From a virus (Duplodnaviria > Heunggongvirae > Uroviricota > Caudoviricetes): a stretch of 6,911 nucleotides of DNA. Position numbers and translations under genes: made by a program. Location: IMG/VR virus record IMGVR_UViG_3300014519_000020, one strand, 5' to 3'. Positions within the stretch are counted from its first letter, which is position 1, and each line of letters opens with the position of its first letter. The notes under the pieces are model-generated. The model was not told the DNA's origin. It saw only the letters and a list, made by a program, of their open reading frames with translations, and did not search any database. Positions 2,184-6,741 of this stretch are shown piece by piece.

Positions 2184-3212
2184 TTATTTCACCTGTACCA
2201 CCACAAACTCATCCGGATCCGGCAGCACCATCAGCGGTGCGGACTGCGTCATGGTGAATTCACGGGCCGGATCGCCCACGGTCAGCCAGTGTTTCGGATA
2301 ACGGGAAGAGGCCACCACACCTTCGGACAACGCCTGCGCATCCTGAATGGCACCATAGCAACGAATGCCCTCTGCTGCCGTATTCCCCAGGACCAGTGTG
2401 CCCTCCGGCAGATAACGTTTTTCGGTACCGTCTTCTGCCACATAAGACGTTTTCGCCACCACAATGGCCAGATCGCCGTAATACCCCTTGAAGGACACCA
2501 CCGCCCCCAGGTCTTTCACTGCCGTTTCGAGTTGTGAATTTGAGCCGCGACGGGTATCCAGTTTTTCGCGGAACAGCTTAAAGCCATTCAGCAGACGCCA
2601 GACCGTACCGTCCATAATGGCGATATTCACAAGGCCGCTGGCCTGATCGCAGTAGAGGTCAATATCATGCGTCGGATCAAACGTATCACGGTCCTGCTCA
2701 GACCATTTTTTACCGTCAGCCTGCTCAATGTTATTTCCTTCAGAGCGCCCGAAATCCACCTCGACAGTATCAAACTGATCCCCTTCCATGGTGTATTTGC
2801 CATACAGCACGGCATTCACCGCCTGCATTTCTTCCACCTGGACAATGGCGTGCTCTTCCTGTTTGAGGTTATCGGTAATGATACGCAGACGACGGTAGGC
2901 CGGGTCGTTCAGCTGAGCCGGATCTTCACCAGGAAGGCGCTCAACCGCCTGCTGGTAATTAAATTCGTGTTTGGGCTTGACGTAGCCCGGACGTAACACG
3001 CGGGTTTCACCACCGCGATGGCGAAGCACTTTTCCTTCAACGATCGGGGAGACATAGGCCGCCACCGGCGTTTTTCCGGTAATTTTGTCCAGCATCACCT
3101 CTTCGGTGTGGAAATTCACCGTACGGCGGAAAAACAGCTCCAGAAACAGCGCACGGAATTTAACTTTTTGTTCGGTATAACCGAGTAACTGGCGGGTCGT
3201 AAACAATCCCAT
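2184..3212 (-). CDS. E: Major capsid protein (gpE-like), 342 aa
   Basis: Track ORF 2184..3212. MGLFTTRQLLGYTEQKVKF...PGYVKPKHE...VKAMYAATIESELD... with long colinear similarity to lambda gpE (341 aa), including the C-terminal ...GDPAREFTM.QSAPLM.L.DPDEFV.VQ. RBS AAGGA lies 9 nt upstream of the ATG at 3212. Confidence 0.95.
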   Translation of the reverse strand: MGLFTTRQLLGYTEQKVKFRALFLELFFRRTVNFHTEEVMLDKITGKTPVAAYVSPIVEGKVLRHRGGETRVLRPGYVKPKHEFNYQQAVERLPGEDPAQLNDPAYRRLRIITDNLKQEEHAIVQVEEMQAVNAVLYGKYTMEGDQFDTVEVDFGRSEGNNIEQADGKKWSEQDRDTFDPTHDIDLYCDQASGLVNIAIMDGTVWRLLNGFKLFREKLDTRRGSNSQLETAVKDLGAVVSFKGYYGDLAIVVAKTSYVAEDGTEKRYLPEGTLVLGNTAAEGIRCYGAIQDAQALSEGVVASSRYPKHWLTVGDPAREFTMTQSAPLMVLPDPDEFVVVQVK

Positions 3213-3240
3213 AAATCAGTTCCTTTCATTAAGAAATCAG

Positions 3241-3262
3241 TCAGGCCAACGCGGTGGCCTGA
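3241..3262 (-). promoter_or_regulatory. Perfect 8-bp inverted repeat (stem-loop) in the D-E intergenic spacer
   Basis: Plus strand tcaggcca-acgcgg-tggcctga (3241-3248 / loop 3249-3254 / 3255-3262). It sits between the D stop (3270-3272) and the E RBS. On the mRNA it is followed by CUGAUUUCUU, which is U-rich but not a clean U-tract. Confidence 0.3.
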
Positions 3263-3269
3263 TAACGTG

Positions 3270-3617
3270 TTACGGCAGCGCCGCGTGACTCAGGGCACTG
3301 CCGGTAAAGGCGTTGGCCTTTTTGTGTTCATCCACACTTTCAGGCCAGCGGATTGCCTCCGTCGCAAAGGTCCCCGACTTGTAATAGGTCAGCACCTCCT
3401 CTGTGCCTTCAAGCGGCAGTACCAGTATGCCAACCGCACTACCGGCTTTCTGTCCGTCCCAGACCACCAGTTTCCCGGTGGCCCCATCCAGCATCAGGGG
3501 TGTCAGTGCCGGTGTTGCCGAGGAAATCCCGCTGCTGCCTGTGGCGGTGTGAGCCGGATCATTACCGGCAAAAATACGTACTTCCGCACGCTGTTCAGTG
3601 ATGGTTTTCGTCACCAT
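3270..3617 (-). CDS. D: Capsid decoration protein (gpD-like), 115 aa
   Basis: Track ORF 3270..3617. MVTKTITEQ...NDPAHTAT...TPLMLD...KLVVWDG...AVGIL...YYKSGTF... matches lambda gpD (110 aa) motif for motif (SDPAHTATA, MTPLMLD, FYKSGTF). Confidence 0.93.
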   Translation of the reverse strand: MVTKTITEQRAEVRIFAGNDPAHTATGSSGISSATPALTPLMLDGATGKLVVWDGQKAGSAVGILVLPLEGTEEVLTYYKSGTFATEAIRWPESVDEHKKANAFTGSALSHAALP

Positions 3618-3653
3618 ATTGTTAAAACCTCGTATTGATGTTCAGCACTGACT

Positions 3654-4256
3654 TCATGGCATGGCCATGAGCATTTTCACGTCCGCATCACCGTCTTCTG
3701 ACGCCTGTGACACGCCCCCCTGGACCGCAGCCGGTGAATGGTTCGCCATGAAATGTTCAAACAGGGCGGTTGTGGATGCAGAGACCGGTTCTGCCTTACC
3801 TGATCCCGCAGCCAGCACAGCCCGGGCGCTCTCCACAGTCATTCCCGGGCAGGCAGCCAGCTGTTCAGCCTGCGCCTCAGCCCCTTTTGCCTCATCCAGT
3901 GCCATGATCTGATCACGGAGTGAGGGTCCGGCATTCGCCTGCGGTGAAGCAGCCAGGATCGGGCGGGCTTTTTCCACCGTCATCTCCGGCATCGCCGCCA
4001 GCGTTGCCGCCAGTTGTTCACGACCGTTCGCTTCTTCACACGCCATAATGCGATCGGCTTCACTCTGTGCGGATGCCACCGGCTGCTGCGGTGCCGCCGC
4101 GGCCAGAATCGCCCGGGCCTGTTCAACGCTCATGCCCTGTTGCCCTGCCAGCATCGTGGCAAGCTGTTCACGTCCTTTCGCTTCCTGGCATGTCAGGATC
4201 CCCATCACTCGCTGGTTCTCCTGCACGGCGGCTTCCGTTGCAGTTAATTGCGGCAT
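3654..4256 (-). CDS. nu3: Scaffolding protein (Nu3-like), nested in frame in the 3' part of C, about 200 aa
   Basis: Internal in-frame ATG at 4256-4254 (codon 302 of C; MPQLTATEAAVQENQRVMGIL...) preceded by a strong GAGGAGG RBS 5 nt upstream. It aligns with the start of lambda Nu3 (..GGRMTKETQSTTVS..), and lambda Nu3 is likewise an in-frame internal start sharing the C stop codon, with a very similar length (about 201 codons). Confidence 0.6.
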   Translation of the reverse strand: MPQLTATEAAVQENQRVMGILTCQEAKGREQLATMLAGQQGMSVEQARAILAAAAPQQPVASAQSEADRIMACEEANGREQLAATLAAMPEMTVEKARPILAASPQANAGPSLRDQIMALDEAKGAEAQAEQLAACPGMTVESARAVLAAGSGKAEPVSASTTALFEHFMANHSPAAVQGGVSQASEDGDADVKMLMAMP

Positions 4257-5159
4257 AGTGCCTCCTCTGACATTACTGTTCAGCGCCGTGGCCATCACAC
4301 TGATGGCATCCGACGCATTGATTAATTCATCCGCCAGCCCGGCCTCAATGCCGGACTGACCTTCAAAAACGGCAGCCTCTGTTCCCGTGACCGCATCAAC
4401 AGACAGACCGGTATACATCGCCACTTTTTCGGCAAACATCCGGCGCGCCGCATCAATCCGCTGCTGCATGTCCTGGCGAACCTCTGCCGGCAACGCTTCA
4501 AACTGATTGCCATCCACCTTGTGCGCTCCTGAGTAAATCAGCGTGATATCCACACCGGCCTGCGCCAGATGACCGGCATAGCTGACATGGCTCATCATCA
4601 CGCCAATGGAGCCGATACGGGATGTCTGGGTAACCAGCCGTCGGGAGCAGGCCGACGCCAGCAGCATGGCTGCAGAACAGGCCGTGTCATTGCACAGTGC
4701 CCAGACCGGCTTCTGCTGACGGAGGCGGTAAATCATGTCAGCACAGTCAAACGCACCGGCGGCCTGCCCGCCCGGACTGTCAATGTCCAGCAGTACACCC
4801 CGCACCTGGCTATCTGCCATTGCCTGCTGAAGACAGGCGACAATGCCGTCATAGCCTGTTATTCCGGAAAATGGCCGCATACCCCCCAGCCGGTGCACCA
4901 GCGTGCCGGTCACCGGCAGTACCGCAATACCGTTCACCACCCGGTAAACACGGGCCGGTCGTTTACCTCCGGCCATGTACTCGTCCGTTTCAGCCAGCAT
5001 TCCGGGTGCATCAAGCTGTACCTGCTGTTGTGGTACCGAAAGACTTGCTGCCCCCATCTCGCGCCCGAGCGCGCAAAAGAAAACCCGCGCACAGGCGGGC
5101 TCCAGAAGCAGCGGTTCATTGAATGCTGCTGCAATAATGTGTGAAAGATTACGTCTCAC
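3654..5159 (-). CDS. C: Prohead protease (gpC-like; S49/SppA-ClpP-type head maturation protease), 501 aa, with C-terminal scaffold (Nu3) domain
   Basis: Track ORF 3654..5159. The start codon is GTG at 5159-5157, overlapping the portal stop. N-terminal ...IAAAFNEPLLLEPACARVFFCAL..., ...GIAVLPVTGTLV..., ...KPVWALCNDTACSAA.LLASACSRRLVTQTSRIGSIGVMM.H..., ...ITLIYSGAHKVDGN... are colinear with lambda gpC (439 aa). It is about 60 aa longer than lambda gpC, which the repeat expansion in the C-terminal part accounts for. Confidence 0.9.
   Translation of the reverse strand: MRRNLSHIIAAAFNEPLLLEPACARVFFCALGREMGAASLSVPQQQVQLDAPGMLAETDEYMAGGKRPARVYRVVNGIAVLPVTGTLVHRLGGMRPFSGITGYDGIVACLQQAMADSQVRGVLLDIDSPGGQAAGAFDCADMIYRLRQQKPVWALCNDTACSAAMLLASACSRRLVTQTSRIGSIGVMMSHVSYAGHLAQAGVDITLIYSGAHKVDGNQFEALPAEVRQDMQQRIDAARRMFAEKVAMYTGLSVDAVTGTEAAVFEGQSGIEAGLADELINASDAISVMATALNSNVRGGTMPQLTATEAAVQENQRVMGILTCQEAKGREQLATMLAGQQGMSVEQARAILAAAAPQQPVASAQSEADRIMACEEANGREQLAATLAAMPEMTVEKARPILAASPQANAGPSLRDQIMALDEAKGAEAQAEQLAACPGMTVESARAVLAAGSGKAEPVSASTTALFEHFMANHSPAAVQGGVSQASEDGDADVKMLMAMP
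3811..4222 (-). repeat. Three tandem imperfect direct repeats (about 140-150 bp each) inside the C/Nu3 coding region
   Basis: DNA units starting near 3811, 3952 and 4103 share the pattern gccagNaNNgcccgggc...tcat.cc...gccagctgttcacg.cc.ttcgcttc.... They encode three copies of a roughly 45-50 aa motif: R.MGILTCQEAKGREQLATMLAGQQGMSVEQARAILAAA / ADRIMACEEANGREQLAATLAAMPEMTVEKARPILAAS / RDQIMALDEAKGAEAQAEQLAACPGMTVESARAVLAAG. Confidence 0.75.
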
Positions 5160-6648
5160 GTGGTGTTGTCTCCTCTTCCGGCCTGCGACTCTCCGCTATC
5201 TGCTGCTGATACGCCTGCGCTATCCACACCGGACGTGAGAGTCCGGCTTTTTCCCGCTCTGCAGATTCCCTGACCTGCTGGCGGAAAATGTCCTGATAAT
5301 CCTCGCCCATCAGCGCCAGCTCTTTCTCATACGTGCTCAGTCCGGCCTCAATGCGCATCACTGATTCCTGAACCTCCTTGAGCCCGTCAATGGCCATTCT
5401 TCCGGCTCCAATCCACTCAGCCCGTGACCAGGCTGATCGCGCCTGATAAAAATCAAAACGCGCCCGTGGCGGACGAATAATCCCCCGAAGAAGTGCCTCT
5501 TCCAGCCAGCAGGAAAACATCTGCGTGGCCAGCCGGGACGCAATAAATTTTCGCCGCCCCATAAAATAGCGCCACGACTCATTGGCGGATGCGCGGGCAC
5601 TTGAATAACTGACCTTCGAGTAATCACGGGACAACTGTTCGTAGGAAACGCCAAGACCGGCGGCGATATACCGCAGCAGCGCCTGTTCAAGCGCCGAAAA
5701 TCCATTGTCTGAATCCTGCGCGGTCTGAAGTTTCAGATCATCACCGGGGAAAAGGTGCGGAATTTTGACACCGCCCAGCGTCACGCTATTCGTGTCATAC
5801 CAGGTGGAGAACTTCTCCAGAATATTAATAAGCGGATTATCCTTCTGCCCCTGCGGCGCACCGGCGATATATTCAAAGGCCTTTTCGGTATCAAGTTCAC
5901 TTTCAATCGTCGCTGCATACATCGCCTTCACTATGGCCGACTGAAGCTGTGTTGCCTGCAGGGAATCGAGCATCTTCAGCCGTTCCATTACGCTGTAAAA
6001 CTGATTGGCCCCACGGGTCTGCCCGTCCTCCACCGGCTCGAAAATATGCAGCATAGCCGGACGCCCGGTGGGAAGTTCACGCGGGATCCGTTCCCATCGT
6101 CCACTCCCGGAGCGAGGAAAATCATCCTCACAGATATGGTACGCAACGGCACGACCATATCGATCAACCTCCACACCGGCCCGCAGAAAACGGTTCCCGA
6201 TACCGTGTCCTGGCGTGTCCACCCGTTTCGGACTCACGGCTTTAAAACGCGTACGAAACAGTTGCGTGCTCTCCGTATCCCAGACCGGCTGCACAAAGAT
6301 TTCGCCGTTAAACGCATGAACGCCCACACCTTCACGGATAAATTCCGTGAACGTGCGTTTCCCTTCCACGTCGATCTCGCCAAACATCCCTTCGGCGTAT
6401 TCCGACCAGGCCGCCTCCACCTCATCGACAAAACTTTTTGCCGCAGTCTCCCGCATCCCCAGCCAGCGCCAGTTCGGACGGTAGCTGATCAGAAACATAT
6501 GCCCGACAATATGATCCTTATGCAGGGCCACCGCATTAGCCGCTATCCCGTTATTGCGCACCAGATCATCTGCCCGGGCATTCCCCAGACGCAACGCAGG
6601 CAGCAGGGCTGCATCGGCACTCTGCGCCGGTGGCAACCACTCCGCCAT
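5149..6648 (-). CDS. B: Portal protein (gpB-like), 499 aa as an intact ORF; the ancestral N-terminus is separated by an in-frame TAG
   Basis: Track ORF 5149..6648. Extensive colinear similarity to lambda gpB: ADAALLP...RGNARADDLVRNNG, ...FEPVEDGQTRGAN.FYSVME..K.LD.LQ.TQLQSAIVKAMYAATIESELD, ...LLRYIAAGLGVSYEQLSR.Y...SYS.ARASANESW.YFMGRRKF.ASR, ...WIG.GRMAIDGLKEVQE.VM.IEAGLSTYEKE. The first ATG (6648) falls about 30 codons inside the region homologous to lambda gpB. Confidence 0.9.
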   Translation of the reverse strand: MAEWLPPAQSADAALLPALRLGNARADDLVRNNGIAANAVALHKDHIVGHMFLISYRPNWRWLGMRETAAKSFVDEVEAAWSEYAEGMFGEIDVEGKRTFTEFIREGVGVHAFNGEIFVQPVWDTESTQLFRTRFKAVSPKRVDTPGHGIGNRFLRAGVEVDRYGRAVAYHICEDDFPRSGSGRWERIPRELPTGRPAMLHIFEPVEDGQTRGANQFYSVMERLKMLDSLQATQLQSAIVKAMYAATIESELDTEKAFEYIAGAPQGQKDNPLINILEKFSTWYDTNSVTLGGVKIPHLFPGDDLKLQTAQDSDNGFSALEQALLRYIAAGLGVSYEQLSRDYSKVSYSSARASANESWRYFMGRRKFIASRLATQMFSCWLEEALLRGIIRPPRARFDFYQARSAWSRAEWIGAGRMAIDGLKEVQESVMRIEAGLSTYEKELALMGEDYQDIFRQQVRESAEREKAGLSRPVWIAQAYQQQIAESRRPEEETTPRET

Positions 6649-6669
6649 TTGCCCGCCAAATCCTGCGCC

Positions 6670-6741
6670 CTACGTCAGGCAGCTGAGACTCTCACGAAGC
6701 GGAACGCCGTTCACATCAATCAGGACAGGCGTTCGTTTCAT
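6670..6741 (-). pseudogene. B: Ancestral 5' end of the portal gene: ATG at 6741 plus 22 codons, ended by an in-frame TAG (6672-6670)
   Basis: Minus-strand translation from the ATG at 6741 gives MKRTPVLIDVNGVPLRESLSCLT*, then GAGFGGQ-MAEW..., all in the same frame as the 5149..6648 ORF. Lambda gpB begins MKTPTIPTLLGPDGMTSLREYAGYHGGGSGFGGQLRSW, so the alignment is gap-free across the stop, which sits where lambda has Gly. The ATG at 6741 overlaps the W stop (ATGA), as the lambda W/B junction does. Confidence 0.6.

Follow-up and report, generated by a model that had tools for sequence, protein, structure and literature searches.

Three tandem modules in the scaffold part of a phage 21-type C/Nu3 protein: a repeat already on record whose unit number varies among close relatives

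What is the threefold repeat in the scaffold part of this lambda C homolog, where did it come from, and what might the repeated module do? The stretch of DNA that was analyzed, here called the window, is 6,911 nt of viral sequence (IMG/VR record IMGVR_UViG_3300014519_000020), and an initial annotation proposed that the Nu3 domain of its C gene holds three tandem copies of a module that occurs once in phage lambda. The list of open reading frames (ORFs) together with Pfam placed the head genes of the window all on the minus strand, and the C homolog was located between the portal gene and the D/E-type genes, as in lambda-type gpC/Nu3 loci (Table 1). Over most of its length, the window was 94 to 97% identical to PhiR12, ev017, 4A7, 1W, 3W, and phage 21, which have phage 21-type head genes. 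We conclude that the window carries a head operon of the phage 21 type.

Table 1. Coordinates of the head genes in the window and of the elements within the 501-aa protein gene
Feature	Position in window	Strand	Basis or remark
Portal gene, lambda family (Phage_portal_2)	5149-6648 (listed ORF)	minus	ORF call and Pfam
Protease/scaffold fusion gene, 501 aa	3654-5159	minus	ORF; homolog of phage 21 gene 5 and lambda C
S49 serine-peptidase domain	4281-4724	minus	PF01343, aa 146-293
Shine-Dalgarno-like GAGGAGG	4261-4267	minus	4 nt upstream of internal ATG; AGAGGAGGCACTATG read directly
Nested in-frame scaffold gene (phage 21 gene 6/lambda Nu3 equivalent), 200 aa	3654-4256	minus	ATG at 4256-4254
Unit R1, aa 313-358	4086-4223	minus	HMM domain, 86.8 bits; holds 'Tri1 box' 4086-4189
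Unit R2, aa 364-408	3936-4070	minus	HMM domain, 87.6 bits; holds 'Tri box' 3939-4049
Unit R3, aa 411-455	3795-3929	minus	HMM domain, 86.8 bits; holds 'Tri3 box' 3795-3908
C-terminal tail, aa 456-501	3657-3794	minus	Net charge -5; low AlphaFold2 confidence
D-type decoration gene (D/shp homolog, HDPD)	3270-3617	minus	ORF and Pfam
E-type major capsid gene (Phage_cap_E)	2184-3212	minus	ORF and Pfam

Outside the C homolog, the portal gene would be expected at positions 5149 to 6741, encoding 530 aa as in phage 21. The listed ORF begins instead at the ATG at 6648 and encodes 499 aa because an in-frame TAG lies at 6672 to 6670 on the minus strand, at about codon 24 of the portal gene. The TAG falls in a 15-nt span (6666 to 6680, minus strand) with 9 substitutions, in which SLSCLT*GAG replaces SLSYNGGGAG, and the variant was absent from all 5,426 complete E. 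coli genomes searched, where the best identity was 92.5% over 91 nt. The stop codon could be an error in the sequence, or it could point to a restart or to a prophage that is defective. At the other end of the window, close relatives all matched from position 43 on, positions 1 to 42 were unmatched, and 20 of these 42 positions differed from the nearest genome; this segment, at the start of the major tail protein gene, is either a mosaic breakpoint or a different allele. Another mosaic patch lies at 1655 to 1928, within the FII and FI homologs, where about 30 of the 80 differences from E. coli AR_0013 are clustered. Finally, a terminator-like hairpin with an 8-bp stem and a T-rich run was found at 3241 to 3262 on the minus strand, between the decoration and capsid genes, and HK225 is annotated with a rho-independent terminator at the corresponding site.

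The 501-aa protein combines a protease with a scaffold. Pfam detected a Peptidase_S49 domain (PF01343) at aa 146 to 293 with 121.6 bits, against a cutoff of 24.9 (E = 3.7e-35), and PHROGs assigned the protein to phrog_53, 'head maturation protease' (E = 3e-226). Shorter PHROGs profiles for scaffold and capsid-assembly proteins matched the C-terminal third in three separate stretches, and thus a threefold repeat was already indicated by these profiles. In order, the protein consists of the S49 protease, a 13-aa linker, three units of about 45 aa each, and an acidic tail of about 46 aa, the pattern of which resembled the C terminus of lambda gpC/Nu3 by eye, with MAFFT giving no alignment of the two.

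The scaffold part also appears to be encoded by a nested gene. The position of that gene agrees with the CDS annotated as 'gene 6' in the phage 21 head operon record (M81255) and as 'scaffolding protein' in the complete phage 21 genome (OL657228), and both records annotate a ribosome binding site at the position of the GAGGAGG sequence. Moreover, the Met of the internal start was conserved in Salmonella Gifsy-1, and one further homolog, P0124, was called on its own as a protein of 195 aa beginning at this Met. We conclude that the in-frame ATG at 4256, together with GAGGAGG, would yield a putative 200-aa protein, gp6, made up of the units and the tail.

A Nu3-type unit motif, RIMGIL...GREE...PGMTV..AR.ILAA, was present in the protein as three HMM domains of 87 to 88 bits, here called R1, R2, and R3. 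Local alignment of the units in pairs with BLOSUM62 gave scores of 101, 83, and 97, compared to about 24 ± 5 for shuffled sequences (z = 12 to 16), and the observed unit score was reached by none of 2,000 shuffles. Protein identity to R1 was 44 to 47%, and 16 columns were invariant across the three units, with E-A-x-G-x-E and M-T-V-E-x-A-R residues among them. The internal repeat is therefore significant, as the initial annotation had maintained in proposing three tandem modules in the scaffold part of the C gene; the span that it gave, 3811 to 4222, covers the three units almost exactly, its motif was correct, and the lambda motif quoted beside it was found in lambda gpC.

In the DNA, the 90-nt diagonals with the most matches were at offsets of 150 nt (62 of 90 matches), 141 nt (57 of 90), and 291 nt (54 of 90), compared to a maximum over all offsets of 51 matches in 200 codon shuffles. 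Of the two periods reported beforehand, about 141 and 151 bp, the first was exact and the second is 150. DNA similarity among the units was only about 63 to 70%. Tandem Repeats Finder, run at a minimum score of 30, did not report the array, a seed-based repeat finder returned short matches only, partly out of register, without detecting the array, and no Pfam model covers the unit of about 45 aa. We conclude that the DNA-level repeat is weak and that the array is visible only by protein-level or diagonal-count analysis.

The repeat is not new to the literature of sequence records. The gene encoding the 501-aa protein was 98.14% identical at the nucleotide level to phage 21 gene 5, with differences at 28 of 1,506 nt and 11 of 501 aa. 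The entry M81255, titled 'Bacteriophage 21 head gene operon' and presumably the record of the phage 21 head-gene paper of Smith and Feiss published in Gene in 1993, lists three repeat_region features within nested gene 6, namely 'Tri1 box', 'Tri box', and 'Tri3 box', each with the qualifier 'function unknown; putative'. When the boxes were transferred to the window by way of the ungapped gene alignment, each lay within one unit, with Tri1 in R1, Tri in R2, and Tri3 in R3. Prior knowledge of the Tri boxes is defined here by the GenBank feature table of M81255. We conclude that R1, R2, and R3 can be equated, by alignment, with the Tri1, Tri, and Tri3 boxes of phage 21 and that the triple repeat is already known, being on record in the GenBank entry for the phage 21 head operon.

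The three-unit scaffold is also common. The 603-nt scaffold region was found in 1,870 of 5,426 complete E. coli genomes, at 2,922 places and nearly always with 95 to 100% identity. A 90-nt probe inside R2 had a full match in 1,812 complete E. coli genomes, and the form with R2 intact therefore predominates. Within a phage collection, the full three-unit region was held by 20 records and a single lambda-type unit by about 80. Whether three copies might simply be ordinary for the family had been raised at the outset; they are ordinary for the phage 21-type head family but not for lambda itself. As a discovery, the repeat carries little weight, since it was already public in M81255 and the scaffold type occurs in about one-third of complete E. 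coli genomes.

The label repeat_region describes the Tri boxes as DNA, and the boxes might act in DNA or RNA, as protein-binding sites, promoters, or recombination signals, with the protein repeat as a by-product. OL657228 likewise annotates two CII-site matches here, which correspond to window positions 4004 to 4017 and 4238 to 4251 on the plus strand. The CII pattern TTGYN6TTGY was at chance level, however, as two or more matches occurred in 59 of 200 shuffles, and a promoter scan of window positions 3200 to 5300 found no promoter-like site. The low similarity of the units in DNA, missed by standard repeat finders, also speaks against elements of this kind. Moreover, about 71% of synonymous sites differed between the phage 21 type and Gifsy-1 while the amino acids were conserved, and conservation of the amino acids of the units without conservation of their DNA argues against a 'box' function at the DNA level. 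Relative to Gifsy-1, dN/dS was 0.114 for the repeats, 0.142 for the protease domain, and 0.405 for the tail, values that are approximate with synonymous sites near saturation. We conclude that the units are, as these ratios indicate, kept by purifying selection at the protein level and that action of the boxes as DNA or RNA elements is extremely improbable, the DNA-level element being essentially excluded.

One close relative, PhiR12_2* (L003, gene 3570-5075), had a dS against the window of 0.30 in the repeat region, 0.04 in the protease part, and 0.09 in the tail. The divergent part corresponds to window positions 3795 to 4223 and is thus a mosaic patch restricted to the repeats, which suggests recombination within the array.

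An HMM built from R1 to R3 found one unit in lambda gpC (aa 356 to 400, 58 bits), in line with the single occurrence given for lambda in the initial annotation, and one unit each in 2B8, HK225, and Aeromonas phage phiARM81ld. Three units were found in Salmonella Gifsy-1, and three further homologs (P0121, P0123, and P0124) likewise had three. A 45-position unit profile was searched against 1.84 billion representative proteins and gave 476 matches at E ≤ 0.001. Among the best 150 of these 476 representatives, 133 had one unit, 11 had two, and 6 had three, and one unit was present in 52 of the 54 that were at least 380 aa long. The architecture of the family is protease, linker, unit or units, and tail, and the tail after the units was 39 to 78 aa in all full-length members measured. 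The linker from protease to unit was 13 aa in three-unit proteins versus 32 to 100 aa (median, 53) in single-unit proteins. We conclude that one unit is the family norm. At 501 aa versus 439 aa, the window protein exceeds lambda gpC by 62 aa, close to the 60 aa initially estimated, and the excess is a net figure: two units were gained, and the linker from protease to first unit is about 40 aa shorter.

The first, second, and third units of the window protein were 76, 76, and 58% identical to the matching units of Gifsy-1, compared to 40 to 53% for nonmatching units. Because the units match Gifsy-1 position for position, the triplication predates the split of these phage groups, and the description of the repeat as an old, diverged duplication stands. 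R1 contains a three-residue insertion (RVMGIL/RIMGIL) in common with the lambda-type single unit, and R2 and R3 are without it. We conclude, on the strength of sequence comparison, that R1 is the positional counterpart of the single unit of lambda and that the three modules go back to an old tandem duplication of the one module present in lambda-type gpC/Nu3. Elsewhere in the family, near-identical tandem units were found in P0129 and P0133, and the distant P0176 had two units; these duplications look independent and recent.

Four proteins of the representative library (P0146, P0158, P0159, and P0173) had C/Nu3 segments joined to Nu1, tail U, tail L, or tape-measure proteins. Such fusions may have arisen by deletion or as chimeras of assembly; they make the contexts in which the unit occurs look more diverse than they are and were not used as evidence.

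Alleles were surveyed in 120 close homologs, none of them less than 81% identical. In addition to the 501-aa allele with 3 units seen in the window and phage 21, the survey returned a 451-aa allele with 2 units, 472-aa (P0111) and 482-aa (P0043) alleles with about 2.5 units each, a 551-aa allele with 4 units (P0002/P0003; L009 1274-2929), and a 657-aa allele with about 5.5 units, represented by one sequence (P0001). The 482-aa allele was indexed in 3,592 collection blocks. Two different R1/R2 joints were present among the 451-aa alleles (P0090 and P0086), and thus at least two events took place. The two sequenced deletion joints sit at short microhomologies: the joint of the 451-aa allele lies within the shared octamer GAAGCGAA, and that of the 482-aa allele lies between two CTGGC pentamers. 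The longer alleles contain duplications, one of 50 aa in the 551-aa allele and one of 156 aa in the 657-aa allele, the latter duplication also taking in the end of the protease part. The 451- and 482-aa loci were complete head-tail operons, read from Nu1 onward, and the 551-aa locus is cut off within the portal gene, where its contig ends. In this contig, the joint of the duplication coincides with N bases, and given these, the four-unit allele could be an assembly artifact.

The suggestion that the array would be a substrate for copy-number change was borne out, with close relatives carrying about 2, 2.5, 3, or 4 units. We conclude that, as the sequenced alleles indicate, unit number shifts in close relatives through in-frame deletions or duplications. 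Operons that are otherwise intact contain the alleles with 2 and 2.5 units, and three units are thus not an absolute requirement. Through apparently recurrent in-frame expansions and contractions, unit number might set a naturally tunable scaffold valency, an idea that we regard as very doubtful. If it were true, recruitment of scaffold and protease would be adjusted by unit number, and selection might match capsid or portal variants or evade host factors that recognize the scaffold. The allelic series of unit number in E. coli prophages seems to be an only modestly new item, apparently not described before. Nonetheless, natural alleles with about 2, 2.5, 3, and 4 units, together with the single unit of lambda, form a ready-made series for the role of the module in assembly and protease packaging.

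An AlphaFold2 model of gp6, made from a 14-sequence alignment, had a mean pLDDT of 68 and a pTM of 0.28. Block-mean pLDDT was about 72 to 86 within the units, whereas the tail and one inter-unit linker fell below 50. The same helix pattern was found in every unit, and a single-sequence model was consistent in outline. We conclude that the prediction for each unit is a small helical module that folds separately and that the modules would be joined by flexible linkers. A paper title calls lambda gpNu3 intrinsically disordered, so binding may be needed for the predicted helices to form. Searches of the PDB by sequence gave no match for gp6 at E ≤ 1 and chance matches only for the unit profile. 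Foldseek of the gp6 model gave no match at E ≤ 0.001 in the PDB and none significant in BFVD, a weak search with a beads-on-a-string model of pTM 0.28.

One alternative is that the repeats are an alanine-rich flexible spacer, the copy number of which is neutral and sets the distance from protease to tail. The range of copy numbers, about 2 to 4 in operons that are otherwise intact, is consistent with a spacer, as are the low pTM of the models and the disorder named in the title on lambda gpNu3, and the linker is short with three units and long with one, as if total length were compensated. A spacer fits poorly, however, with a repeat dN/dS of 0.11 that is as low as that of the protease domain (the tail had 0.41), with the 16 positions invariant among the three units, or with block-mean pLDDT values of about 72 to 86 inside them. 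Moreover, 476 representative proteins matched the 45-position profile at E ≤ 0.001, and the motif is kept from E. coli phages to an Aeromonas phage, unlike a neutral spacer. We consider the spacer distinctly unlikely.

We infer instead, with a probability of roughly 0.6, that the units are scaffold protein-interaction modules that also carry the protease into the procapsid. The unit is taken as an interaction module because it is the best conserved element of the C-terminal part common to C and Nu3, and it would be a conserved protein-interaction element of the gpC/Nu3 scaffold family. Since the module is common to gp5 and gp6, a few protease molecules could co-assemble with many scaffold molecules in the procapsid. 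Candidate partners of the module are other scaffold chains, the major capsid protein, or the portal; in lambda, C-Nu3, Nu3-Nu3, Nu3-B, and Nu3-E interactions have been reported or curated (PMC3224144). Three modules per chain would give a multivalent scaffold and replace the long disordered linker of lambda-type proteins, and any effect of three units on scaffold valency is speculation. The proposal is tempered by the negative structure and fold searches, by the disorder named for lambda gpNu3, by the intact operons with 2 or 2.5 units, and by the internal start, the use of which comes from annotation that is itself labeled 'putative' in M81255.

Each unit might alternatively be a helix-turn-helix that specifically binds the capsid protein, much as the P22 scaffolding protein binds coat through its C-terminal domain; for P22, coat binding by a helix-turn-helix has been described (10.1101/2022.12.13.520362). 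If so, one gp6 chain would touch up to three gp7 subunits, and some other role would fall to the acidic tail. Across the family, no part of the shared C-terminal region is better conserved than the unit, which is predicted to be helical with a conserved P-G-M-T loop, and a Nu3-E two-hybrid interaction has been reported for lambda (PMC3224144), all of which is consistent with coat binding. The fold searches nevertheless returned no P22-like match, and no sequence or fold relation to the P22 gp8 C-terminal domain was found by PDB sequence search or Foldseek, within the limits set by the low pTM. Furthermore, the units vary in number and sequence beside near-identical capsid genes, as illustrated by the PhiR12_2* dS of 0.30 compared to 0.04 to 0.09 in the flanking parts. 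In other scaffold systems, the extreme C terminus is usually the coat-protein binder, but the extreme C terminus here is a separate conserved tail after the units. We consider dedicated coat binding unlikely and favor modules that mediate scaffold interactions and bring in the protease.

Among known systems, P22 gp8, P2 gpO, and herpesvirus UL26/UL26.5 represent scaffolding proteins with helical coat-binding domains and protease-scaffold fusions, with a scaffold, or a scaffold and protease that share a C-terminal part by which the protease enters the procapsid. Window gp5 and gp6 are likened to them by functional analogy only, as no sequence or fold relation was detected by PDB sequence search or by Foldseek against the PDB and BFVD, and we know of no tandem module array in any of the three. 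Lambda gpC/gpNu3 is related more directly, with the same place in the operon, an S49 domain, an in-frame nested scaffold gene, and one homologous unit. That unit follows a 53-aa linker in lambda, whereas the three units of the window protein follow a linker of 13 aa, and the start of Nu3 is annotated some 70 codons farther upstream, within the protease part. By the annotated starts, lambda Nu3 (201 aa) and gp6 (200 aa) are therefore equal in length but different in composition. STM2605 of Gifsy-1, a lambda gpC homolog of 498 aa, has three units in the same order and at the same positions, with a gp6 part that is about 56% identical to that of the window and synonymous sites near saturation. 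Phage 21 is like the window in the gene itself (gene 5/6 in M81255 and OL657228), in its 501-aa length, in the positions of the units, and in the placement of the nested gene 6 start and its ribosome binding site. Phage 21 gene 5 differs by point substitutions only, three of them in the repeat region (aa 313 to 455). Compared to phage 21 as a whole, the window is a different mosaic, with its first 42 nt and the patch in its portal gene unlike all relatives compared.
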